Notes under the pieces: model-generated
Database searches by the model: none
The model's input: the letters and a program-made list of their open reading frames with translations, nothing else
Told to the model about the DNA's origin: nothing
Source of the DNA: Candidatus Firestoneibacteriota bacterium
Lineage (GTDB): Bacteria; Oederibacteriota; D2-FULL-39-29; JBDRBU01
Length of the DNA: 32,501 nucleotides
Assembly: GCA_043822305.1 (NCBI GenBank)
Contig: JBDRBU010000007.1
Location: forward strand, 1-32,501
Direction of reading: 5' to 3'
Program-made: the position numbers and the translations under genes
In this document: piece by piece, positions 21,608-32,501 of the stretch
Layout: each line of letters starts with the position of its first letter
Numbering within the stretch: position 1 is the stretch's first letter

Positions 21608-22231
21608 TTATTTGAGAGAAAATTTTATGGGTATGCGAATTGAAACTTTAGTTTGGTTTAGATTCATTAGCGGTAAAAAAGGCTGGGCGGATTTAATAAT
21701 TTTAATTGCTCCATCGTCTAAAGATTTATCTCCAGATGATTTAAAAATATTTATATTGCTGACATATCCATCATTTGAAATAGAAATATCAACCAGAACT
21801 TCTCCTTGTATATTTTTTTCCCTGGCCGCTTTTGGATATTTTTTAAATCTTTCTATTTTAGTTTTTATTTCTTTAAACCATAAAATTGTTTCATAATTAT
21901 AACTTAGACTGTTACCAATTAAATTACCATCAGCAACCGGTTCATGGTCATCTTTATCTTCTTGCTCGTTTAAATCTTGCCGTAATTCGATTGGTTTACT
22001 TTCTTCATCTTTTTTTATCGCTATAAATGGAGCCCGTGTTGTTCCTAAAAGTGGAGTCGGGGTCGTCCCCGACCCCGACATATATTTTTTGTGATTTATA
22101 ATTTGTTTTTGAATGTATCCAATTTCTATAACATTTTGCCCTGATATGTAAGTTTTCTTAGAGTTCGGAAATTTTAAAGTTTGAAGAAATAATAAATGTA
22201 ATATGATTGAAAAAATAAAAAAATATTTCAT
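21608..22231 (-). CDS. tonB: TonB-family energy transducer
   Basis: N-terminal SIILH transmembrane motif; YPKAAREKNIQGEV...SSG...LD...A...PF. Confidence 0.88.
   Translation of the reverse strand: MKYFFIFSIILHLLFLQTLKFPNSKKTYISGQNVIEIGYIQKQIINHKKYMSGSGTTPTPLLGTTRAPFIAIKKDEESKPIELRQDLNEQEDKDDHEPVADGNLIGNSLSYNYETILWFKEIKTKIERFKKYPKAAREKNIQGEVLVDISISNDGYVSNINIFKSSGDKSLDDGAIKIIKSAQPFLPLMNLNQTKVSIRIPIKFSLK
22052..22082 (-). repeat. Family-1 palindrome lying in frame inside tonB
   Basis: TATGTCGGGGTCGGGGACGACCCCGACTCCA, near-identical to 30929-30960. Confidence 0.8.
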
Positions 22232-22280: not shown

Positions 22281-24128
22281 TTAAAATGTAATGTTTGCTC
22301 CTCCATTAAATGTTCTGCCTGGCATTGGGTATCCATCTCTAAGTTGATAGGGTACATTTTCAATATTTTCTATCCCCAAATTAATCTGTAAATAATCATT
22401 GATTTGCAAAGTTAACCTTACATCTGTTTTTATAAAATTGGGGAGCGATCTTGTATTGCTTGTATTAATAAATCTTTTATCATAATATTCAGAATCTATG
22501 CTTAATTTTTGACCAAAAATGTTATACTCCATTCCCAAATTAACTTTATTTCTTGGTCTATATATTAACTCCTTATCCAAACTTTCATCTTTAGTGAATA
22601 ACCATGTATGATTTACATATCCTGTTAAATTGTTGAAAGGAACTACTTTTAATTCAGTTTCAAGACCATATGTTGCTACTTTGCTAACATTTGATGGTAT
22701 CCATTTAGAAGATGAATCTAATGGATCTATTTGGGCCCACTGAATCATATCAGTTAGATCATTTCTAAAATATGTTTCTTTTACAAGAAGAAAATCTGCA
22801 AGATCATAACTTACTCCTATATCATACGAGAGGGACTTTTCTGGTTTCACATTTGGATTGCCTTCTGCCCATCCTTCATCTGGCCAGTATAAGTTAGAAA
22901 AAGTTGGTGCTCTAAAACTAGTTCCTATTGAACCTTTTATTTGAATATTATCTTCTATATTATAAATTAATGCTGCTAAAGGGTTAAAACTATCTCCGTA
23001 GACAGAATGGTTATCATATCTAACTGCTGCTGTAAAAATCCATGAGCCAAGCAAATCTAAAGTATCCTGTGCATATACTGATTTTATTGTAGCATTTTTA
23101 TTTCCTAGAGCACTTTGTTCTAAGACATCATAACGACACCTTCCACCTAATGTTAGAATATTTATTCCACCTAAATCATAACTATATTGTGTCTCAAAAT
23201 CCAAATTTTTCTCGTCACTAAGTGTATCAGTGAAAGAATAAAAGTTTAAAATATTTCTTGCTCCGTATAAATTAAACTTAATTACTGATTCATCGTCTAA
23301 CCCAATCTTAAAATTCAAAGAAGAATATAATTTTTCGTTTTTTTGTTTATCAGTTAAAGATGGCCAAGAAATACTTCCAGGAGCACCAAGGTCTGATTTA
23401 AATCCACCAAAGTTTAATTTTAAGTTACTTAATTCTGAAAAATTGTAGTTAATTGTTCCGTTTAAATTATAGGAATCATATTTACTATTCTCTCTTTCTC
23501 CGTCAGAATGTTCATATGAGCCCGTTAAATTCAGTAACAAATTATCAAATTTATTTTCAAAAGAAAGTTTATAATCCTGCGTATTAAATGTTCCATAATC
23601 ACCTGAAAAGGTTATCTCTGGTTTATCAACTTTGCTCTTGGTAATAATGTTTACAACTCCACCAACAGCATTTGCTCCATAAAGTGAAGATGCAGGACCT
23701 CTAAGGACTTCAATTCTTTCTATATTATCTAAATTTAACAATGATAGATTTACATCTCCCACATAACTGCTGTTTAATGAAACGCCATCAAGCAAAATCA
23801 ATGTTCCTTCAGCAGATACTCCCCTAAGAAGTATGGATTGGGCTGTCCCTAATGTCCCCAATTTGCCTATATCAACACTGATTAGATTAGAAATTACTTC
23901 TCCTACATTTTTTGAATCACTCGTTTTAATTTTTTCCTTATCAACTACACTTATATTTGCTGGTACTTCTCTTAACAATTTTTCCACCCTTGAACCAGTG
24001 ACAACGATTTCATCTAATTGAAAGACATCTTTTATCTCAACTGGACAAGTAGTGCCACATTCCTGCTTATTCTCTTCAGCAAAAATATTCAAAGATACTA
24101 AAGATAAAACCAACATAATTCTTAACAT
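22281..24128 (-). CDS. btuB: TonB-dependent cobalamin receptor (BtuB-like)
   Basis: DEIVVTGSR TonB box, IERIEVLRGPASSLYGANAVGGVVNIIT plug, FRAPTF, GNPNVKPE, PGRTF, terminal Phe; B12 operon context. Confidence 0.88.
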   Translation of the reverse strand: MLRIMLVLSLVSLNIFAEENKQECGTTCPVEIKDVFQLDEIVVTGSRVEKLLREVPANISVVDKEKIKTSDSKNVGEVISNLISVDIGKLGTLGTAQSILLRGVSAEGTLILLDGVSLNSSYVGDVNLSLLNLDNIERIEVLRGPASSLYGANAVGGVVNIITKSKVDKPEITFSGDYGTFNTQDYKLSFENKFDNLLLNLTGSYEHSDGERENSKYDSYNLNGTINYNFSELSNLKLNFGGFKSDLGAPGSISWPSLTDKQKNEKLYSSLNFKIGLDDESVIKFNLYGARNILNFYSFTDTLSDEKNLDFETQYSYDLGGINILTLGGRCRYDVLEQSALGNKNATIKSVYAQDTLDLLGSWIFTAAVRYDNHSVYGDSFNPLAALIYNIEDNIQIKGSIGTSFRAPTFSNLYWPDEGWAEGNPNVKPEKSLSYDIGVSYDLADFLLVKETYFRNDLTDMIQWAQIDPLDSSSKWIPSNVSKVATYGLETELKVVPFNNLTGYVNHTWLFTKDESLDKELIYRPRNKVNLGMEYNIFGQKLSIDSEYYDKRFINTSNTRSLPNFIKTDVRLTLQINDYLQINLGIENIENVPYQLRDGYPMPGRTFNGGANITF

Positions 24129-24237: not shown

Positions 24238-24969
24238 TTATAATTTTAAGGATAAAATAATTAAAACACAAATTTCAATGATTTCTACGGTAAAGCCAAA
24301 AATATCTCCCGTTATGCCACCTATTTTTTTTACAAAATATAAAGCAATTAATATTGAGATTACTGTCGTAATTAAAAATGCAAAAATTCCATTTAATCCA
24401 ACTAATAATGAAATTAGAAATGAAAATCCAATAGCCATAATGAGTTGTTTAAATGGAACTTTCTTGCAAAATATGGATCCTAACCCATTATTTTTAGCCG
24501 GAGGAGCAAAAAACATTTGCAGAATTATTCCGGTTCTACTTAAAACAGGCATTAAAATAAAAGCAATATTTAAATTTGAAATATTAAAATTAACAAGTAG
24601 AAAAACTTTTAATATTAAAATTATAAATAACCAGACGGCTCCCATGGCTCCCAGATGACTATCATCCATTATTTTGAAAATTTCTTCTTTTGTTTTCCCT
24701 CCGTAAAGTCCATCAATAGTATCAGCGAAGCCATCTAAGTGCATACATCCAGTTAGAAGTAGATAAACGGCGAAGGTGAGAAGGAGGGAAGCAAAAGAGG
24801 GTAAAAATAATGACAGAATAAAATTTGTCCCGACTAAGATCAATCCTAAGATTAAACCGGCTAAAGGGAAAAACACGACAGAGTTGACCAAATCGGATTC
24901 TTTAATTTCTCTCTGTATCTTTACTGGTATTCTTGTTAAAAATTGTAAAGCAATTAAGAAGTTTCTCAT
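24238..24969 (-). CDS. cobS: Adenosylcobinamide-GDP ribazoletransferase (cobamide synthase)
   Basis: QFLTRIP, TGCMHLDGFADTIDG, IMDDSHLGAMG, GGITGDIFG. Confidence 0.95.
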   Translation of the reverse strand: MRNFLIALQFLTRIPVKIQREIKESDLVNSVVFFPLAGLILGLILVGTNFILSLFLPSFASLLLTFAVYLLLTGCMHLDGFADTIDGLYGGKTKEEIFKIMDDSHLGAMGAVWLFIILILKVFLLVNFNISNLNIAFILMPVLSRTGIILQMFFAPPAKNNGLGSIFCKKVPFKQLIMAIGFSFLISLLVGLNGIFAFLITTVISILIALYFVKKIGGITGDIFGFTVEIIEICVLIILSLKL

Positions 24970-25487
24970 TTTAATCTCATGGGTAATCCGGCGGCCATAA
25001 AATAAACCTCATCGGCATACTTGGCTAATATTTGATTTGATTTACCTTGTCTATCTCTAAATAATCTGGCTAATTTATTTCTGGGAACAATTCCCAGACC
25101 AACTTCATTTGAAATAATTATCACTGATGATTCACAATTTTTACAAGATTTAGCCATTTCTTTTATTTTGTCTTCTATTGAATTTTCATTATATTTTTTC
25201 ATCATCCAGTTGTTAAGAAGGAGTGTTAAACAGTCTAAAAGGATTACCTTGCCTTTTTTATTTTCTTTTTTAAAGACGGAGATAACATTTAAAGGTTCTT
25301 CTATCACTTTCCATATCTTGCTTCTATTTTCTTTATGCTTTTTAACCCTGTCTTTCATTTCTTTATCAAGTGGAATAGTTGTGGCAATATAGACAAACTC
25401 TTTGCCTAATTTTTGGGCTAATTTTTCACTAAAAGAAGTTTTTCCGCTTCTGGCTCCACCAGTTATAAGAATAAATTTTTTTTTCAT
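24966..25487 (-). CDS. cobU: Adenosylcobinamide kinase/adenosylcobinamide-phosphate guanylyltransferase
   Basis: GGARSGKT, YIAT, LDCLT, SNEVGLGIVP, RLFRD. Confidence 0.96.
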   Translation of the reverse strand: MKKKFILITGGARSGKTSFSEKLAQKLGKEFVYIATTIPLDKEMKDRVKKHKENRSKIWKVIEEPLNVISVFKKENKKGKVILLDCLTLLLNNWMMKKYNENSIEDKIKEMAKSCKNCESSVIIISNEVGLGIVPRNKLARLFRDRQGKSNQILAKYADEVYFMAAGLPMRLK

Positions 25488-26533
25488 TTTATTTTTTCAT
25501 CCACTCCTGCTGATTCAAAAGTAGCCATTTCATTTAATATCTTTACACCAGCATCTATTATATTTATGGCTAAGGCCGCCCCGGTTCCTTCTCCTAATCT
25601 TAAATCTAAATTAAGAATTGGTTTTAATCCCAGATAATCCAAAGCAATTTTATGACCTCTTTCAACGGATACATGAGAAGCAAACAAATATTCTCTGACT
25701 TTAGGGGAAATATTTACAGCAATTAAAGCCGCCGCTCCAGAAATAAATCCATCAATAACCACAGGTATTTTTCTCATGGCCCCGCCAAGTATTACTCCAG
25801 TTAACCCACCTATCTCAAATCCTCCAACCTTAGATAAAACATCAAGAGCATCCTTAGGATTTGGTTTATTTAGTTTTATTCCCTTTTTTATGACTTTAAT
25901 TTTATTTTCGAAAGTTTTATCATCTACCCCCGTCCCTCTTCCAGTTACAATCTCAACTTTTTGTTTGGTAAATACTGAGGTTATGGCACTACTTGGAGTT
26001 GTGTTGCCTATGCCCATATCACCTGTGCCGACTATATCTATATTCTTTTCGCTTAAGACAATATCTAGACCCGCTTCAATAGATTTTATTGCTTCTTCTT
26101 TTGTCATGGCTGGACCTTTTGCAAAATTTTTTGTTCCATAATTGATTTTTTTTATTATTAAGTCTGGATGTTTTTCTAAATCACTGGCCACGCCCAGATC
26201 AACTACTATTACTTTTGCTCCAATATGCCTGGCTAAAACATTTATACCTGCTCCGCCTTTTAAAAAATTATAAACCATTTGAGGGGTTACTTCTTTTGGA
26301 TAGGCCGAAACTTTTTCTTCAACTACTCCATGGTCACCGGCCATGGTAATTATAACTTTATTTTTTAAGGTTGGATTCTTTTTACCTGTAATGGCTACTA
26401 CATATTTGGCCATCTCTTCTAACCGGCCCAGACTTCCAAGTGGTTTTGTAAGATTATCTAACCTCTTTTGTGTTTCCTTAAAAGATTCCTTATCTATCCC
26501 TTCTATTTCTACATCATACTTACCTATTTTCAT
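25484..26533 (-). CDS. cobT: Nicotinate-nucleotide dimethylbenzimidazole phosphoribosyltransferase
   Basis: LTKPLGSLGRLE, GDHGV, GDMGIGNTT, DGFIS, LRLGEGTGA. Confidence 0.97.
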   Translation of the reverse strand: MKIGKYDVEIEGIDKESFKETQKRLDNLTKPLGSLGRLEEMAKYVVAITGKKNPTLKNKVIITMAGDHGVVEEKVSAYPKEVTPQMVYNFLKGGAGINVLARHIGAKVIVVDLGVASDLEKHPDLIIKKINYGTKNFAKGPAMTKEEAIKSIEAGLDIVLSEKNIDIVGTGDMGIGNTTPSSAITSVFTKQKVEIVTGRGTGVDDKTFENKIKVIKKGIKLNKPNPKDALDVLSKVGGFEIGGLTGVILGGAMRKIPVVIDGFISGAAALIAVNISPKVREYLFASHVSVERGHKIALDYLGLKPILNLDLRLGEGTGAALAINIIDAGVKILNEMATFESAGVDEKIK

Positions 26534-26559: not shown

Positions 26560-26592
26560 ATTCCCCCTTAAAAAAGGGGGTTAGGGGGTTGT
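26560..26592 (+). repeat. Family-2 repeat, copy 2
   Basis: ATTCCCCCTTAAAAAAGGGGGTTAGGGGGTTGT; one mismatch to copy 1; supplies the btuD stop codon. Confidence 0.8.
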
Positions 26593-27405
26593 CTTTATTG
26601 TTGTCTTTATTTTTGACTGCCTTTCTCTTGCTTCTTCTGGAACTATTAATATAAAAGGTTTAGAAGAAATTGGATTTTTTTCTACAACCACAATTGTCTT
26701 ATAAACCTCCTCAATGATTTGATATTTTAAAACCTCCTCGGGAGTTCCCATTGAATAAACCCTGCCTTTATTTATAAGAACTAACCTCTGACAATATTCA
26801 CTGGCTAAATTAAGGTCGTGCAGGACCATGATGACTGTAAGTTTAAATTCTTTATTTAACTTTTTTACAAGGTCTAAGATTTTTATTTGATGTGTTATAT
26901 CTAAATGTGTTGTTGGCTCATCCAATAAAAGCAATTTTGGTTCTTGAGCCAAAGCCCGGGCCACAAGGACAGTTTGTCTTTCTCCGCTACTTATTTCTGC
27001 TATAAGTCTATTTTTAAGTTTAAAGGTGTCTGTTAGCCTCATACATCTTTTAGCAATATCCAGATCGTTTTTTGTTTCTAAAAATTGAAATCTTTCATAG
27101 TGAGGAATCCTCCCCAGAAGTACAAATTCCTCTACGGTGATGTATCCTATTTCAGAATCTTGAGAAATTACCGCTATTTTCTTAGCCAGATCCTTAAGGC
27201 CCATCTGCCAGATATCTTTTCCTTCAAATAAAATATTCCCTTTCTTTGGCTTAATCACTTTAGTTATCGCTTTTAGAAGAGTTGTTTTCCCTGACCCATT
27301 TGGACCTATTATGCCTACAAGTTCTCCTGCAGCTACTTTAAGATTAATATCTAAAAGATTAAATTTTAAGTCATAACCACAATTTAAGTTTTCTATCTTA
27401 AGCAC
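26581..27405 (-). CDS. btuD: Cobalamin ABC transporter ATPase
   Basis: GPNGSGKTT, LLLDEPTTHLD, HDLNLA; context. Confidence 0.88.
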   Translation of the reverse strand: MLKIENLNCGYDLKFNLLDINLKVAAGELVGIIGPNGSGKTTLLKAITKVIKPKKGNILFEGKDIWQMGLKDLAKKIAVISQDSEIGYITVEEFVLLGRIPHYERFQFLETKNDLDIAKRCMRLTDTFKLKNRLIAEISSGERQTVLVARALAQEPKLLLLDEPTTHLDITHQIKILDLVKKLNKEFKLTVIMVLHDLNLASEYCQRLVLINKGRVYSMGTPEEVLKYQIIEEVYKTIVVVEKNPISSKPFILIVPEEARERQSKIKTTIKTTP

Positions 27406-28421
27406 TATTTTCCTCCCAGAATAACTTGTTTCTTGCTTAATGTATAAATAAAAATACTTCCTCCTAATATCCCTGTGATGACGCCGACAGGTAATTCTAA
27501 AGGTGATATAACTATTCTAGATAATGTATCGCAAAATATTAAAAAACATGCCCCGCTTAAAAAGGCACTAATCAAAAGAATTCGATGGTCACTTCCAACG
27601 AACATACGGACAAAATGAGGAACAACCAGACCGACAAATCCAATAATACCAGCAACCGCCACACTACAACCAGTAAGTAAAGAGGAGAGTATAAAAAGTA
27701 ACCGCTTTGTTCTTTCTATATTTATGCCCAGATGCAACGCTTCTTCTTCACCAAGTAGAAAAGCATTTAAATCCTTCCAAAATAAACAAGATATGAACAA
27801 CCCTAGAACAGATATTAAAAGTGTTAGTTTTATTAAAACCCAGTTTGGTTCTTCTAATGAACCCATTATCCAGAAGATAATTCCATGAAGGTCCTCAGTC
27901 CGAGAAACAGCCATAATGAGCATAATTAAAGAAGAAGAAATAAAACTTATCATCACACCCGTTAAAAGAAGTTCTTGAATCTTTAAAATACCCTTTTTTA
28001 TACTTAAGGAATAAACCAATAAAATAACTAAGATTGCTCCAGCCCAACCAAAAAGAGGTAAGGTTACAGCACCAAAAGTTTGATATAATCTAAATATAAT
28101 ATTTAAACATACACCTAAGGCTGCTCCTCCAGAAATGCCCAGTGTGTATGGTTCTACAAGAGGATTACGAAACATACCCTGTAAAATTACTCCAGATAAA
28201 GCCAATGCTCCGCCTACGGCAAAACCCAGAATAATGCGCGGTAATCGGATATCAAAAATAATACTATATTCGGTAGAGCCTTTACCTTCAAGGATAACTT
28301 TTAGAATCTTCTTTAAAGATATTCCAACTGAACCTGTGCATATGGAGAAAAGAGAGATACAAAGTAACAAACCGCACAAAACCAATATCCAACAGATCCA
28401 TCTAATAATTTTCTTTCTCAT
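27405..28421 (-). CDS. btuC: Cobalamin ABC transporter permease (FecCD family)
   Basis: IRLPRII, RNPLVEP, GIIGFVGLVVPH, ELPVG. Confidence 0.9.
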   Translation of the reverse strand: MRKKIIRWICWILVLCGLLLCISLFSICTGSVGISLKKILKVILEGKGSTEYSIIFDIRLPRIILGFAVGGALALSGVILQGMFRNPLVEPYTLGISGGAALGVCLNIIFRLYQTFGAVTLPLFGWAGAILVILLVYSLSIKKGILKIQELLLTGVMISFISSSLIMLIMAVSRTEDLHGIIFWIMGSLEEPNWVLIKLTLLISVLGLFISCLFWKDLNAFLLGEEEALHLGINIERTKRLLFILSSLLTGCSVAVAGIIGFVGLVVPHFVRMFVGSDHRILLISAFLSGACFLIFCDTLSRIVISPLELPVGVITGILGGSIFIYTLSKKQVILGGK

Positions 28422-29248
28422 TTTATTACTCCAGGATGTAAAATATTGACAATTTCCTCTAATGTTTTCACGAAACTCACTGGCGTGGGGCTGGTAAGTT
28501 CGTCAGTAGATATAATATAAATTCGGTTGTTCTCTGTCGCACTTAAAGTTTTATATTTCTCCCAGACCTTTTTTTCTTCTTCCCCGGCAATGCCCATGGC
28601 CGTAATAATTATTACATCAGGATTTGCGGATAAAACCTGTTCTCTTGAATATATACCTTCCTTTGCGTCTTTAGCTATATTTATTCCACCAGCAATTTCA
28701 ATATAGTCATTAATAAAACAACTACCTGTTGCGACAAACAAAGGTTTTGCTCCTACCTGGACAAGAACCTTTGGTTTTCCTAAAATTTCAACCTTTTTTT
28801 TAATGAATTTTACATTGTCTTCAGCATTCTTTACAATCTTTTCAGATTCTTTTTCTTTACCAACAAGTCTTCCTAATTCTAAAAACTGTTTGCACAGATC
28901 ACTAAAATTTTCTGGCATAGACAAAGTAATCACTTTTATTTCTAATCTTTTTAATTTCTCTTTTGCCTTAGGATTAGTTAAAGATGTGGCTAAGACCAAG
29001 TCCGGTTTAAGATTAAATATTTTTTCTATGTTTATATCTATAACTGTACCAATCTTCTCTTTTTTTTCTGCTCCAGCAGGGCTAAGGCAGTATATAGTAT
29101 TGGCTATCAATTTATCCTGCACTTCTAAAAGATATAACCCCTTGGTTATAGAAGGCCCTAAAGAGATTATTCTTTGAGGGAGGATGTCGGCTACACAAAT
29201 ACCACATAAAATTATTAAAAATACTGATAATATTATATTTTTTTTCAT
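28418..29248 (-). CDS. btuF: Cobalamin-binding periplasmic protein
   Basis: RIISLGPSIT, EKIFNLKPDLV, AGGINI, NPDVII; signal peptide. Confidence 0.85.
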   Translation of the reverse strand: MKKNIILSVFLIILCGICVADILPQRIISLGPSITKGLYLLEVQDKLIANTIYCLSPAGAEKKEKIGTVIDINIEKIFNLKPDLVLATSLTNPKAKEKLKRLEIKVITLSMPENFSDLCKQFLELGRLVGKEKESEKIVKNAEDNVKFIKKKVEILGKPKVLVQVGAKPLFVATGSCFINDYIEIAGGINIAKDAKEGIYSREQVLSANPDVIIITAMGIAGEEEKKVWEKYKTLSATENNRIYIISTDELTSPTPVSFVKTLEEIVNILHPGVIK

Positions 29249-29895
29249 TTTTCAATCTCCAAAAACCAGTGGTTATCTTTTAATATTTTTTTTCCGGTAA
29301 TAAATTTCATCGGTTTTTTAAAAATGGGTCCATCATAAACGAATGTATGATACTCACCTTTTTCTCCACACATATCAATATTTTTTAAAGATGCCAGTTC
29401 TTTTATGAGATTATTATCAATCTGACGACCTAACCATTTTTTGCCTAAAAAATTACTATTTGTTGCTACAACAATTGCCTTAAATCCAACATCAATAAAC
29501 TCCTTAAGCAACTTTTTTCTTTTTTCTTTCCATAATGGAAGTATTGGCTCAATATTCAATTCTTTACAAACTCTTTCTACCCAGTCCCTGTGTTCTTGTA
29601 AATCAATATCACCAAAAATCCCTGTTATCATGCCTTTTGTCTTTAATTTAGAAACGGTTTTTTTGAATTCCTGTTCGTAAGTTTTCCATTCAGTTTTTCT
29701 TTGTATAATAGGGATCCCTATTATATCTGATTGTAACTTTAATAGAGTGGATTTGATGCCATGTGTTCGAGAACGTTTTCCATCTTCAGAAATCATATTT
29801 AGAAGACAGTCAATTTTCATGTTTTTATTCTTTATTGTTCTGTATAAAGATAGTGCACTTTCCTTGCCACCGCTCCAGCAACAAAATGTTTTCAT
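29245..29895 (-). CDS. DUF71/diphthine-ammonia-ligase (Dph6)-like ATP pyrophosphatase
   Basis: WSGGKES PP-loop, FGDI, WVERVC, PLW, CGEKGEYHTFVYDGPIF. Confidence 0.88.
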   Translation of the reverse strand: MKTFCCWSGGKESALSLYRTIKNKNMKIDCLLNMISEDGKRSRTHGIKSTLLKLQSDIIGIPIIQRKTEWKTYEQEFKKTVSKLKTKGMITGIFGDIDLQEHRDWVERVCKELNIEPILPLWKEKRKKLLKEFIDVGFKAIVVATNSNFLGKKWLGRQIDNNLIKELASLKNIDMCGEKGEYHTFVYDGPIFKKPMKFITGKKILKDNHWFLEIEK

Positions 29896-30959
29896 TTAAT
29901 TCTCCATGTTTTTCTATTTACTTTTAAATTTATTACATATCCACATATTTTACAATGGAAAGCATCCCGTTTCATACCGGCCTCGCATCCCGGACATTTC
30001 TTCTGACTGGTTTTTGGGACCGGAATTTTTCCTAATTCCTTTTTATATATTTCGTAATAATACAGATGTTCTTTATTTAAAAATTTTACCGGATATGCCT
30101 TTTTTTTCTCTTCAAATTCTTCATCTCGTATTTTTAAACTGATTATTCTTCTTAATTTAGTCATTCCCGAACCAGACTCTAAAGGTCTTTTATCCTGCCA
30201 GACAATTTCAGGAGGTAATAAATCTTCAAATGCCTTCCGCAAAATCCATTTTCCTGTATTTTCTTTTATCTTCAAAATAACAGGAATTTTTAAAGCAAAA
30301 TCTACCACATTTTTATCAATAAAGGGCTGGATTATTTTAATCCCAAAATATTTACCAAGTTCGTTAGAACTAAAACTCATGTTTTTAGATATTCTTTTAA
30401 TATAACTTTGTAAATTATGCACATCCTTCATAAACGAATATCCTCCAAAAAGTTCATCACTTCCATCACCAGTCATAACTGATTTCATTCCTAATTTTTT
30501 CGCTTGCTTTAATCCAAAATAAACTGCAATATCATTAGGAATAGCCGGGTCAAAAGTTTTAAGAACTCTTATTATTTCCGGAATAGAGTTTATGGCTTCA
30601 TCTATTTCTACGATTCTTTTGTAATGTTTCATATTTAAGTATTTGGCTAAAAAATTAGCATATTTTAAATCCTCTCCATTTAACTTTAAATTCACAGTAA
30701 TTCCTATAAGATTAGGATTAATACCGGCTAAAATAGACGAATCTAAACCACCGGAGAAAAGCAATCCTTCCGCGTTCACGTTATTCTTTTGAGCAACTTT
30801 TCTTATAATATTTTTCAACTCTAAAACTAGTTCTGGCGTAAAGCCTCCTGGTATAATGTTCACGATAGTTTTTAGTTCTCCTTTGATTCCACAACCCCCT
30901 TGATCCCCCTTTATTAAGGGGGAATAAATGGAGTCGGGGTCGTCCCCTGACCCCGACAT
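29892..30959 (-). CDS. Asparagine-synthase synthetase-domain protein without a glutaminase domain, with a C-terminal zinc ribbon (real start possibly GTG 30863)
   Basis: FSGGLDSS, TGDGSDELFGGY, PF, KWILRKAF, CPGC...CKICG; the first ~24 codons are repeat-derived. Confidence 0.85.
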   Translation of the reverse strand: MSGSGDDPDSIYSPLIKGDQGGCGIKGELKTIVNIIPGGFTPELVLELKNIIRKVAQKNNVNAEGLLFSGGLDSSILAGINPNLIGITVNLKLNGEDLKYANFLAKYLNMKHYKRIVEIDEAINSIPEIIRVLKTFDPAIPNDIAVYFGLKQAKKLGMKSVMTGDGSDELFGGYSFMKDVHNLQSYIKRISKNMSFSSNELGKYFGIKIIQPFIDKNVVDFALKIPVILKIKENTGKWILRKAFEDLLPPEIVWQDKRPLESGSGMTKLRRIISLKIRDEEFEEKKKAYPVKFLNKEHLYYYEIYKKELGKIPVPKTSQKKCPGCEAGMKRDAFHCKICGYVINLKVNRKTWRIK

Positions 30960-30960
30960 A
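30891..30960 (-). repeat. Adjacent family-1 (30925-30960) and family-2 (30891-30925, inverted relative to the other copies) repeats
   Basis: Minus strand reads TATGTCGGGGTCAGGGGACGACCCCGACTCCATTT then ATTCCCCCTTAATAAAGGGGGATCAAGGGGGTTGT. Confidence 0.8.
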
Positions 30961-30965
30961 CCTTA

Positions 30966-31499
30966 CTAATATTCTATCCCCGCCCTGGCTTTAATCCCTG
31001 TTTGATAAGGATGTTTGACTAAAATCATATTAGTTACTAAATCTGCTTTTTCAATGATTTCATCTGGAACATTCCTCCCAGTTAAAATCAACTCAACATT
31101 ATTTGGTTTTTCATCAAGTATCTTTAAAATCTTTTTAATGCTTATAAAATCATCTGATATGCAATTATTTATCTCATCTAAAATTATTATATCGTATTTT
31201 TTTGATTTCATAATTTTAGATACATCTTTTACCATCTTATTTATATCTTTAATTAAACCCCTATTAAGAGGTTTTTTTGTAAAGCCTGGATGAATTTGTT
31301 TCCCCCTTATGATTTTTAAAGAATCCTTAAATTTTTCTGCTGATATTAACTCTCCGCTCTTACAGTTTTTATCTTTTAAAAACTGGAATATGCAAACTTT
31401 TAATCCATTTCCTACGGCTCTAAATGCTTGTCCTAAGGCTGCTGTAGTTTTTCCCTTACCATCACCCGTATAAATTTGAATTAATCCATGTTTTAGCAT
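30966..31499 (-). CDS. cobO: Cob(I)alamin/corrinoid adenosyltransferase (CobO/BtuR/CobA)
   Basis: YTGDGKGKTTAALG, QFLK, ILDEI, LTGR, KHPY..G..AR.GIEY; GGAGGG RBS. Confidence 0.95.
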   Translation of the reverse strand: MLKHGLIQIYTGDGKGKTTAALGQAFRAVGNGLKVCIFQFLKDKNCKSGELISAEKFKDSLKIIRGKQIHPGFTKKPLNRGLIKDINKMVKDVSKIMKSKKYDIIILDEINNCISDDFISIKKILKILDEKPNNVELILTGRNVPDEIIEKADLVTNMILVKHPYQTGIKARAGIEY

Positions 31500-31500
31500 T

Positions 31501-32271
31501 TTACCCTCCATAAAATACTTCCATTACTATTTTTTTGCTACTTAAAATTTCTTTAATCCCTTTTTTGGGTTTAATTTCCAAAGTAAAAACTGCATCTTTA
31601 TGAAATGGTGCTGATTTTTTTATTGTCTTCAACAAAGAGACCATATCAATATTCCCTTTACCAATAGGAAGATGTGAGTCTGTCTGGCCATCATTATCGT
31701 GAATATGAAACTCTATTATTTCAAAAGGTAACGCTTTAAGATAATCACAAAGATTTTTCTTATCAGTTAGATTTTTCTTAAACGCAATATTTAAATGACC
31801 TATATCCAACAACATCCCGAGTCTTTTGTTGTTTACAGCTTTTTTAATTTTTATTAAATCGCTTATCCTGGAGTTTATTATCCAGTTTTCTAAGCTTAGA
31901 TGAATATTTTTTATTTTTTTTAAAGTATATTTTAAAGCCATCACTGTTGCTTCAAAATCAAAAGCATTTTTAAATACAGGATCAAAAGATATGCTCCATA
32001 CATTTTTCTCCAGATTTTCACTCTTAATAAACTGTAATATTCTGTTCAATCTGTAATCTAACCCTTTTATTATTTTATCTTCACTTATTCCAAAAAAACT
32101 TAGATGAAAAGTAATAATTAAGTTATTATCTCTTATGATTTTAGCCATACTTTCTTTTTCTTCAAAAGAACTTCCCAAGAAACTAATTGAGTTAAAGCCC
32201 AGATCAACAACCCTTTGTATTTTTCTGGCTAGATCACCTTTTAAATTCCATAACGATATGCCTATGTTCAT
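31501..32271 (-). CDS. AP-endonuclease-2/xylose-isomerase-like TIM-barrel metalloenzyme; candidate CbiR-like cobamide-remodelling enzyme
   Basis: FH, LEN, LDIGH, FHIHDNDG..DSHLPIGKG, LE metal-binding motifs; first gene under the B12 riboswitch. Confidence 0.8.
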   Translation of the reverse strand: MNIGISLWNLKGDLARKIQRVVDLGFNSISFLGSSFEEKESMAKIIRDNNLIITFHLSFFGISEDKIIKGLDYRLNRILQFIKSENLEKNVWSISFDPVFKNAFDFEATVMALKYTLKKIKNIHLSLENWIINSRISDLIKIKKAVNNKRLGMLLDIGHLNIAFKKNLTDKKNLCDYLKALPFEIIEFHIHDNDGQTDSHLPIGKGNIDMVSLLKTIKKSAPFHKDAVFTLEIKPKKGIKEILSSKKIVMEVFYGG

Positions 32272-32320: not shown

Positions 32321-32429
32321 GCACCCTGATTTTCTTATCCCGTTTTAATAAAAACTCGACATTCCTTTACGGCGCGAAGGAATTCGATTTACCCGCGCAC
32401 CACTTAAGGGGTACGGGGCTTGTTTTACA

Positions 32430-32501
32430 GCAAGGTTTTCTGACTCACAGGTTTTATCCTACTCTCTTACCTTCCCCTCCATAATGAAGAGTGGTTTGCT
32501 A
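32430..32501 (-). ncRNA. Cobalamin riboswitch, 3' half (5' half outside the window)
   Basis: Minus strand AACCACU...GGGAAGG...GAGUCAGAAAACCUUGC resembles the conserved GCCACUG/GGGAAG/B12-box elements; lies upstream of cob/btu genes. Confidence 0.85.

Follow-up and report, generated by a model that had tools for sequence, protein, structure and literature searches.

An asparagine-synthetase-like gene that alternates with CobQ beside DUF71-B12 in corrinoid salvage operons

A riboswitch-led corrinoid operon in a genome without ring synthesis

We analyzed a 32,501-nucleotide (nt) stretch of DNA from a Candidatus Firestoneibacteriota bacterium (contig JBDRBU010000007.1 of assembly GCA_043822305.1), hereafter called the window, to whose full length all coordinates refer. 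This study concerns two neighboring PP-loop genes within a corrinoid salvage operon on its minus strand, namely an asparagine-synthetase-like gene, for which we use the name AsnL, and a gene of the DUF71 family. In related operons the position of AsnL is taken by CobQ, an alternation that suggests a role for the pair in the amidation of imported corrinoids.

Read from the window end, the operon consists of a riboswitch, a TIM-barrel gene, cobO, AsnL, DUF71, btuFCD, cobTUS, btuB and tonB:

32412–32501, minus strand: 3' half of a cobalamin riboswitch aptamer (RF00174), model positions 102–189 of 189; the 5' part is cut by the window and contig end
32285–32384, minus strand: GC hairpin and downstream U run that resemble a terminator, located between aptamer and first gene
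31501–32271, minus strand: xylose-isomerase-like TIM barrel (AP endonuclease 2 superfamily; PF01261, 60.3 bits), the first gene of the operon
30966–31511, minus strand: cobO/btuR, ATP:corrinoid adenosyltransferase (PF02572, 195.3 bits)
29892–30863 (open reading frame to 30959), minus strand: AsnL (PF00733 Asn_synthase, 143.7 bits)
29245–29895, minus strand: DUF71-B12 PP-loop ATP pyrophosphatase with Dph6-like fold, 216 amino acids (aa) (PF01902 Diphthami_syn_2, 190.2 bits)
28418–29248, minus strand: btuF, corrinoid ABC importer (PF01497; BtuF model 95.5 bits, under its cut-off)
27405–28421, minus strand: btuC, corrinoid ABC importer (PF01032)
26581–27405, minus strand: btuD, corrinoid ABC importer (PF00005)
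25484–26533, minus strand: cobT, nucleotide-loop assembly (PF02277, 464.7 bits)
24966–25487, minus strand: cobU, nucleotide-loop assembly (PF02283, 206.9 bits)
24238–24969, minus strand: cobS, nucleotide-loop assembly (PF02654, 180.4 bits)
22281–24128, minus strand: btuB-like TonB-dependent receptor (PF00593 and PF07715), after a 110-nt gap behind cobS
21608–22231, minus strand: tonB (PF03544)

As the original prediction had described, Pfam annotation places the gene pair between cobO upstream and btuF, btuC and btuD downstream, and ATGA overlaps join AsnL to DUF71 and DUF71 to btuF. The remainder of the window (1–21600) is unrelated in function; its genes are for a formate-dehydrogenase-like molybdoenzyme, MoaA, PolA, molybdate transport and polyamine synthesis.

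The same prediction had assigned the operon to a B12 riboswitch. This holds for the 3' half of the element, which is cut at the contig end and scores 30.8 bits (E 9.4e-5) against a gathering score of 31.5, so that RF00174 is not reported in the window at the gathering threshold and appears only as a match below it. The hairpin between the aptamer and the first gene surfaced as a sub-threshold PyrR match (32.8 bits versus 54); it has a perfect GC-rich stem followed by UUUUUU and is probably the expression platform of the riboswitch.

The source genome (G000; 2.15 Mb, 125 contigs, 96.8% complete) was searched with family cut-offs. The lack of cbiA, cbiP and cbiB, which had been noted for the operon, extends to the whole assembly: none of CbiB, CobQ/CbiP, CobB/CbiA and CbiZ was found over cut-off, and neither was CobD threonine-phosphate decarboxylase, for which the best match reached 199.5 bits versus 290.55. 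Because CbiB, CbiZ and CobD are all missing, cobyric acid would be a dead end in this genome and remodeling by way of it would be closed. We conclude that the window holds a cobalamin-riboswitch-controlled operon for corrinoid uptake and salvage, in a host that cannot build the corrin ring.

The two PP-loop proteins

The AsnL open reading frame (29892–30959) encodes 355 aa and matches PF00733 alone, from residue 65. Translation probably starts at the GTG at 30863, since the called protein has 323 aa and the 32-residue N-terminal extension is unconserved in 17 homologues and covers two GC-rich hairpins. Inside this extension, the spacer between cobO and AsnL (30864–30965, minus strand) carries the GC-rich inverted repeats GTCGGGGTC…GACCCCGAC and CCCCCTT…AAGGGGG in an AT-rich genome. 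The features first reported for AsnL were all recovered: SGGLDSS, GDGSDE and a C-terminal CPGC-x10-CKIC are in the translation, and Pfam finds no glutaminase domain. Across 18 aligned AsnL sequences, the SGGLD PP-loop, the T-G-D and D-E-L of the TGDGSDELFGGY block, GKWI/RKA, WQ.KRP.E.GSGM and the four zinc-ribbon cysteines are invariant; G166/S167, F171 and G172 of the TGDGSDELFGGY block vary.

The best 120 homologues are 297–344 aa long, 55–77% identical and contain PF00733 only; they come from Nitrospirota, Omnitrophota, Elusimicrobia and others, and their names go no further than 'asparagine synthase-related protein'. Judged by these sequences, AsnL is a distinct and well-populated family. 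Its closest solved relatives are AsnB and beta-lactam synthetase, the best being E. coli AsnB (E 1.4e-23), and its Atlas model superimposes on full-length AsnB clusters with TM 0.81–0.83. The nearest Atlas neighbors are archaeal (Nitrososphaerota, Bathyarchaeota) and Mucoromycota clusters, which are leads only and do not imply orthology. AsnL shares the PF00733 fold, SGGLDS and an xGxGSDExFGGY block with the synthetase domain of AsnB (E. coli AsnB, 1ct9; human ASNS, 6gq3) and with beta-lactam synthetase/CarA. It differs from AsnB in lacking the N-terminal Ntn glutaminase domain (about 310 versus about 550 aa), in reading TGDGSDE where AsnB reads SGEGSDE, in its additional C-terminal zinc ribbon and in its B12 context. 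No close fusion of AsnL to DUF71 or to a glutaminase was found in a search of longer proteins; the longer matches were all ordinary AsnB at 28–33% identity, and therefore no close fused form is apparent. A predicted complex of AsnL (residues 33–355) with DUF71 received a score of 0.01 and a mark of 0.32 and carries no weight, for or against, in what follows.

Among 99 genomes of the window's phylum, an AsnL orthologue was found in the source genome alone; three further matches, with E-values of 1e-37 to 1e-40 and frames 433–491 aa long, look like ordinary AsnB. This confinement suggests that the source genome gained AsnL horizontally. In the phylum of another carrier, G102, AsnL was found in that genome alone among 151. 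One orthologue in Omnitrophota (G148:C4:7160-8077) has an in-frame TGA in an otherwise full-length match, which may reflect a sequencing error, a pseudogene or recoding.

A different contig of the source genome encodes a further AsnB, which is full-length and includes a glutaminase domain (GATase_7 and Asn_synthase, 487 aa; locus L100, contig C125, 234–4528). Its neighbors are an octopine-dehydrogenase-like gene and a 559-aa protein with a sub-threshold match to a B12-binding domain (31.6 bits versus a cut-off of 32.1). This locus may be a small biosynthetic cluster rather than one for housekeeping asparagine synthesis.

The second gene of the pair belongs to a group that has been described before. 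In the relevant sections of their paper, de Crecy-Lagard et al. (2012; Biol Direct 7:32; PMC3541065) split DUF71 into Dph6 and a 'DUF71-B12' subgroup, whose genes adjoin btu genes in 75 of 102 cases and cbiB in 18 of 102, and whose signature ENGE[F/Y]H has a histidine for the catalytic Glu188 of the Dph6 motif EGGE/DxE. DUF71-B12 and bacterial CbiZ were strictly anticorrelated in the genome set of that year, and the authors cautiously proposed that DUF71-B12 substitutes for bacterial CbiZ. According to the same sections, the ancestral function of DUF71 is protein amidation, and DUF71-B12 differs from Dph6 at the residues that the latter employs for EF-2. The only mention of AsnB there concerns a few archaea, where it is fused N-terminally to DUF71 as a supplier of ammonia; those sections describe neither a glutaminase-less AsnB-like partner nor an alternation with CobQ.

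The window protein fits this subgroup. As predicted, it is a DUF71/Dph6-like protein (PF01902 over residues 1–216) with SGGKES in its translation. Residues S8, G10 and K11 of the PP-loop are invariant in 25 of 25 sequences, as is G-E-x-G-E-[YF]-H. Aligned to its closest solved relative, PF0828 (3rjz), which it matches with 113 bits, the Dph6 motif GEGGEFET reads GEKGEYHT, replacing the glutamate by histidine; the window protein differs from the published signature in having K at the N position (EKGEYH versus ENGE[F/Y]H). It shares with the subgroup the PF01902 domain, the SGGK PP-loop, the histidine signature and the position next to btuFCD, and on our tree it falls in the DUF71-B12 clade (100/100), apart from non-B12 DUF71. 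It shares fold and PP-loop with the diphthine-ammonia ligase Dph6, from which it is set apart by the histidine and by its score of 130.8 bits for the Dph6 equivalog TIGR03679, under the cut-off of 197.3. To our knowledge, bacteria have no diphthamide.

Since the DUF71 gene carries the published signature, it is not unexplained. The description of both genes as unexplained therefore needs to be divided: for DUF71-B12 the link to B12 was published in 2012, and for AsnL none was found, the open-access and bioRxiv literature yielding no paper besides PMC3541065 that ties an AsnB-like or PP-loop enzyme to corrinoids. The DUF71 half is thus a known prediction, whose published mechanism, as far as gene content tells, looks unlikely in this genome.

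A second, deeply separate DUF71 clade, 28–39% identical to the window protein, lies mostly outside B12 context. Its members are L092–L099 (Omnitrophota genomes G170, G202, G230, G204, G130, G208 and G163) and a second copy in L088, next to genes for a lipid A acyltransferase or glycosyltransferases, or to an NAD-synthase-like PP-loop gene.

Conserved synteny and the alternation of AsnL with CobQ

Relatives of AsnL occur in at least 489 species-representative genomes. The best 80 loci, which are the closest relatives rather than a random sample, were annotated by phmmer with the window proteins, and the remaining neighbors with Pfam and NCBIfam. Of the 70 loci with 900 nt or more of sequence downstream of AsnL, 63 have DUF71 on the same strand no further than 3.5 kb downstream, and in 51 it is the immediate neighbor. 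A btu or cob gene lies on the same strand within 10 kb of AsnL in 73 of 80 loci, and five of the other seven are short contigs. The genes present are BtuF (56 loci), BtuC (53), BtuD (51), BtuB (50), CobT (48), CobU (43), CobS (41), CbiB (37), CobD (33), CobO (32), a CobC-like phosphatase (22) and CbiZ (5). A full RF00174 aptamer was found upstream on the same strand in all seven related loci tested. This neighborhood survey, which had been suggested as a check, thus came out in favor of a B12 context for most of the loci examined. One carrier, Syntrophorhabdus aromaticivorans UI (locus L058), is in culture.

These data bear on the alternative that AsnL is a plain ammonia-dependent asparagine synthetase placed in the operon by chance. 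Its membership in PF00733 and its best solved relative would be consistent with that view. However, AsnL stays far under both asparagine-synthase equivalog cut-offs (NF006949, 153.9 versus 499; TIGR01536, 119.8 versus 267.1) and has no glutaminase domain, and true AsnB is 28–33% identical to it while identities inside the AsnL family are at least 55%. Considering also the recurrent B12 context, the riboswitches and the separate AsnB of the source genome, we find this alternative barely credible.

The relation of AsnL to CobQ was seen in Omnitrophota, where a sample of 201 genomes contains DUF71 in 51, AsnL in 11, CobQ in 44 (42 over cut-off) and CbiA in 21. DUF71 adjoins AsnL on the same contig in 10 of the 11 AsnL genomes, and the eleventh AsnL is at a contig end. 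Among 18 DUF71 loci taken from genomes that lack AsnL, 13 have btu or cob neighbors, and eight of these 13 contain a CobQ-type gene (PF01656 and PF07685, 498–546 aa). CobQ is directly upstream of DUF71 in four loci, and the order CobD-CobQ-CbiB-DUF71 is found in three.

The clearest case is a pair of sister operons, L047 and L084, both riboswitch-led, whose sole difference is the gene between TonB and DUF71, which is AsnL (317 aa) in the former and CobQ (511 aa) in the latter. The shared genes are 70% (BtuB), 41% (TonB), 66% (DUF71), 72% (BtuF), 90% (BtuC), 83% (BtuD) and 82% (CobO) identical, and two further shared open reading frames 85% and 92%. CobQ was found over cut-off in none of 24 distinct AsnL genomes, and no CobQ-like open reading frame is present in the 80 AsnL loci (1.08 Mb in total). 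Among 34 Omnitrophota genomes with a high-identity DUF71, 10 have AsnL, nine CobQ, none both and 15 neither (nominal Fisher p 0.034, the relatives not being independent). On a careful IQ-TREE phylogeny of 34 DUF71 rows, with which a quick tree of 82 rows agrees, the CobQ-paired proteins form two separate starred clades, one of them placed among the AsnL-paired rows, where its sister is L047 (100/99). A single CobQ-paired clade was found in 0 of 200 bootstrap trees, and therefore the partner of DUF71 has switched between AsnL and CobQ at least twice. The weight of the case is in this positional replacement within otherwise orthologous operons and its recurrence on the tree, rather than in the exclusivity statistics.

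In the salvage operons of Omnitrophota, a protein of 132–148 aa without a Pfam match directly follows CobQ and precedes cobO where the latter is present (L103 9585–10007, L111 9609–10019, L110 1383–1781, L105 7544–7972, which has no cobO, and L106 913–1359).

The alternation argues against two further explanations. The first is the other role that the original prediction had offered, replacement of CbiB, in which one ligase would activate cobyric acid at its f-propionate by adenylation and join aminopropanol or its phosphate to it. Such chemistry is feasible for an adenylating amide ligase, the source genome has no CbiB over cut-off, and AsnL directly follows cobD in 33 loci. However, CbiB stands beside AsnL in 37 of 80 loci and is therefore not being replaced there, and CobD is present in 33 of 80 clusters. 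The source genome has neither a threonine-phosphate decarboxylase over cut-off nor CbiZ as a source of cobyric acid, and the gene with which AsnL alternates is CobQ, not CbiB. We accordingly regard replacement of CbiB as highly improbable.

The second is the CbiZ-like role of de Crecy-Lagard et al. (2012), in which DUF71-B12 would release cobyric acid by cleavage of adenosyl-pseudocobalamin or cobinamide, or make pseudo-B12 accessible to salvage in some other way, with AsnL as an accessory. The published linkage to btu and cbiB and the anticorrelation with CbiZ speak for it, as does the presence of CbiB in the same cluster in 37 of 80 AsnL loci. However, CbiZ (PF01955, 169.8 bits) occurs in the cluster in five of the 80 loci, overlapping the DUF71 open reading frame in L009 and following close behind elsewhere, and DUF71-B12 and CbiZ are therefore not exclusive. 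The idea is also a poor fit to the source genome, which has DUF71-B12 and none of CbiB, CobD and CbiZ over cut-offs. PP-loop enzymes use ATP for amide formation and not for hydrolysis, an objection already raised by a referee in 2012 (PMC3541065, in the section concerned), and the recurring partner of DUF71-B12, whether CobQ or AsnL, is an amide-forming enzyme. On balance a CbiZ-like role appears quite improbable to us.

The carriers tested are salvagers. CbiC, a marker of ring synthesis with a frequency of 99% among producers and 5% among cobinamide salvagers (PMC6461909, as given in its Table 2), was found in none of five AsnL genomes and none of five CobQ-type salvage genomes, as opposed to four of five genomes with both CbiA and CobQ. 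CobQ itself is kept by non-producers. In 11 more Omnitrophota with CobQ and without DUF71 and CbiA, CobQ lies among btu or cob genes in all 11, although two of these have weak BtuF-like matches as sole neighbors and one has CobQ beside CbiX; in the part of the paper on its salvage locus, the non-producer Akkermansia muciniphila is reported to keep cobDQ there (PMC7733943). Because CobQ is retained in import-only operons, an amidating enzyme is a regular part of such operons, and AsnL fills that slot.

DUF71 and CbiA show zero overlap in the 201 Omnitrophota; among the CobQ genomes, 19 have CbiA only, 12 DUF71 only and none both. DUF71-B12 was considered as a CbiA analogue, which would fit the zero overlap, and was not adopted, as a producer or salvager lifestyle explains the pattern equally well. 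The sole CbiA-family gene in an AsnL genome (G102) neighbors a YcaO-type gene where a contig ends; the 7.7 kb of sequence available there offer neither a cob nor a dsr context.

Amidation of imported corrinoids as a candidate function

We favor, with moderate confidence, a reading in which imported corrinoids are amidated on their carboxylate side chains with ammonia as the nitrogen source, AsnL taking over the task of CobQ. We hypothesize that both AsnL and DUF71-B12 are most likely amidoligases driven by ATP and supplied with free ammonia, the likely nitrogen donor since neither protein has a glutaminase domain. Characterized relatives of both folds (AsnB and beta-lactam synthetase; the Dph6 protein PF0828) adenylate a carboxylate and form an amide, and the PP-loops are intact here. 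By analogy, an imported corrinoid would be adenylated at a side chain with a free carboxylate, converting ATP to AMP and pyrophosphate (PPi), and the acyl-adenylate would then be turned into a carboxamide with ammonia. Substrates could be under-amidated precursors or deamidated cobamides and cobinamides, and this amidation or repair would precede completion of the cofactor by CobO, CobU, CobT and CobS. AsnL would act as a non-homologous stand-in for CobQ/CbiP on side chains b, d, e and g, and DUF71-B12 would perform another amidation. Observed directly are gene content, synteny, riboswitch control, the lack of ring synthesis and the AsnL/CobQ alternation; substrate, donor and reaction we infer from the folds and the gene neighborhood.

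Compared with CobQ/CbiP (TIGR00313; a MinD-type ATPase with a triad glutaminase), AsnL occupies the same operon slot in a mutually exclusive manner, and both folds make carboxamides from carboxylates with ATP. AsnL is nevertheless non-homologous, without the CbiA-type nucleotide-binding and GATase_3 domains, and could at most be analogous in function. The CobQ reaction runs through a phosphorylated intermediate and releases ADP and phosphate; AsnL has a PP-loop adenylating fold, expected to release AMP and PPi, with no glutaminase and probably with ammonia as donor. That AsnL would act on side chains b, d, e and g, as CobQ does, is suggested indirectly by the operon slot, the exclusivity and the switches on the tree. 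The original prediction had proposed re-amidation of hydrolyzed side chains of salvaged corrinoids by the pair; the CobQ slot, the absence of co-occurrence in 24 genomes and the two or more partner switches lend support to at least the AsnL half of this proposal.

Several observations weigh against our favored reading. Taken alone, the exclusivity statistics are modest: in all 201 Omnitrophota, CobQ is found in 0 of 11 AsnL genomes and 44 of 190 others (Fisher p 0.13, the genomes being related). AsnL occurs without DUF71 in six loci with at least 3.5 kb downstream, and 15 of the 34 genomes with a high-identity DUF71-B12 have neither AsnL nor CobQ; therefore the pair is not obligate, and an amidating partner can be dispensed with in some genomes. 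Because CbiA tracks producers (CbiC in four of five), lifestyle alone can explain the anticorrelation of DUF71 with CbiA. The reading also depends on the availability of deamidated or under-amidated corrinoids in the habitats of the carriers. No paper on the salvage of cobalamin monocarboxylic acids was found in the open-access and bioRxiv literature.

A further such observation is that two additional genes, cbpA and cbpB, occur in 11 to 12 of the 80 loci, mostly in the interval from AsnL to DUF71, which leaves room for a peptide or protein substrate. CbpA, detected by motif search in 11 loci, is a 35-aa lysine-rich peptide (…RKKCKAxGTGLSHYxLxDKK; TIGR04164, 59.4 bits versus a cut-off of 35); CbpB, in 12 loci, is a radical-SAM/SPASM maturase of 457–484 aa (TIGR04163, 708 bits), and no paper on CbpB with cobalamin was found in the same literature. 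The CbpA sites are:

L003, 11049
L006, 3351
L009, 1337
L017, 6781
L021, 4505
L022, 7179–7283
L023, 10946
L032, 10966
L033, 2415
L040, 2724
L066, 3050

Accordingly, the pair could amidate or cyclize a peptide or protein of the B12 system (CbpA, a B12 enzyme, or a protein with a transport or chaperone role), in the way that Dph6 acts on EF-2 or AsnB-like cyclases on lasso peptides. Macrolactam-cyclase and lasso-peptide-cyclase models give weak matches on AsnL, and the ancestral protein amidation reported for DUF71 would agree with this idea. However, CbpA and CbpB are absent from the window, where a six-frame motif search found no CbpA-like peptide, and from most loci; the EF-2 residues of Dph6 are changed in DUF71-B12; and CobQ, the alternate of AsnL, acts on small-molecule corrinoids. 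We therefore judge a peptide or protein substrate rather improbable.

If AsnL and DUF71-B12 do amidate imported corrinoids, a widespread family would acquire a function, and the puzzling persistence of CobQ in non-producers would be explained. In current cobamide models, salvage consists of uptake and assembly of the nucleotide loop, and auxotrophy is predicted from a set list of genes; under the amidation reading, the cross-feedable corrinoid pool would be wider than cobinamide and complete cobamides. The alternation would further be a clean example of non-orthologous gene displacement, in which two amide-forming, ATP-dependent folds that are unrelated take each other's place. Through the cultured S. 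aromaticivorans UI, the question raised for DUF71-B12 in 2012 becomes directly testable.

A wider version of this reading, which we put forward as speculation and think unlikely on present evidence, is that corrinoid auxotrophs of many anaerobic phyla own a complete glutamine-independent PP-loop pathway for amidation and repair of imported B12 precursors, in which AsnL would be a convergent replacement of CobQ and DUF71-B12 one of CbiA (a,c-diamide synthase), or would serve another side chain. Deamidated and under-amidated corrinoids would then be a significant shared natural resource, and salvage would include repair of the ring periphery. The AsnL relatives in Nitrososphaerota, Bathyarchaeota and Mucoromycota might, in that case, serve archaeal producers and B12-using eukaryotes.

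As accessory enzymes of salvage operons beside transport genes, AsnL and DUF71-B12 resemble CbiZ and CbiR, the latter as described in the relevant part of Mok et al. (2020; PMC7733943), from which they differ in having ATP-dependent ligase folds and not those of hydrolases. The TIM barrel of the window, which opens the operon behind the riboswitch and immediately precedes cobO, shares superfamily and type of context with CbiR: it is an AP endonuclease 2 superfamily member and lies in the same orientation beside cobamide genes, the combination used in that paper. Membership in the CbiR family was rejected, as its NF041277 score of 19.1 bits is far from the cut-off of 105 and no homologue is named CbiR. 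The family is rare, with 17 homologues in the protein collection and none in the other loci compared at that stage. According to the same part of that paper, cleavage of the CbiR type, with cobinamide phosphate as its product, would get around the linker. For a genome that lacks CbiB, CbiZ and CobD, the TIM barrel could be an independent CbiR-like cobamide hydrolase, a candidate that we offer as a lead only.

Further genes and RNAs were observed in the loci surveyed. A small radical-SAM protein (about 244 aa; PF04055 and Fer4_12), weakly similar to MoaA and activating enzymes, lies between DUF71 and btuF in 11 of 80 loci (L004 13321–14034, L006 5644–6372, L008 8693–10293 and eight more). A 6S RNA gene directly follows DUF71 in L010 (11929–12113), and a c-di-GMP-I riboswitch directly follows tonB in L089 (9507–9594). 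CbiE-like tetrapyrrole methylase genes (TIGR02467, 139 bits in L032) are found in or near three AsnL clusters, at L032 13904–14572, L069 17537–18253, and L080 3040–3795 and 9111–9983.

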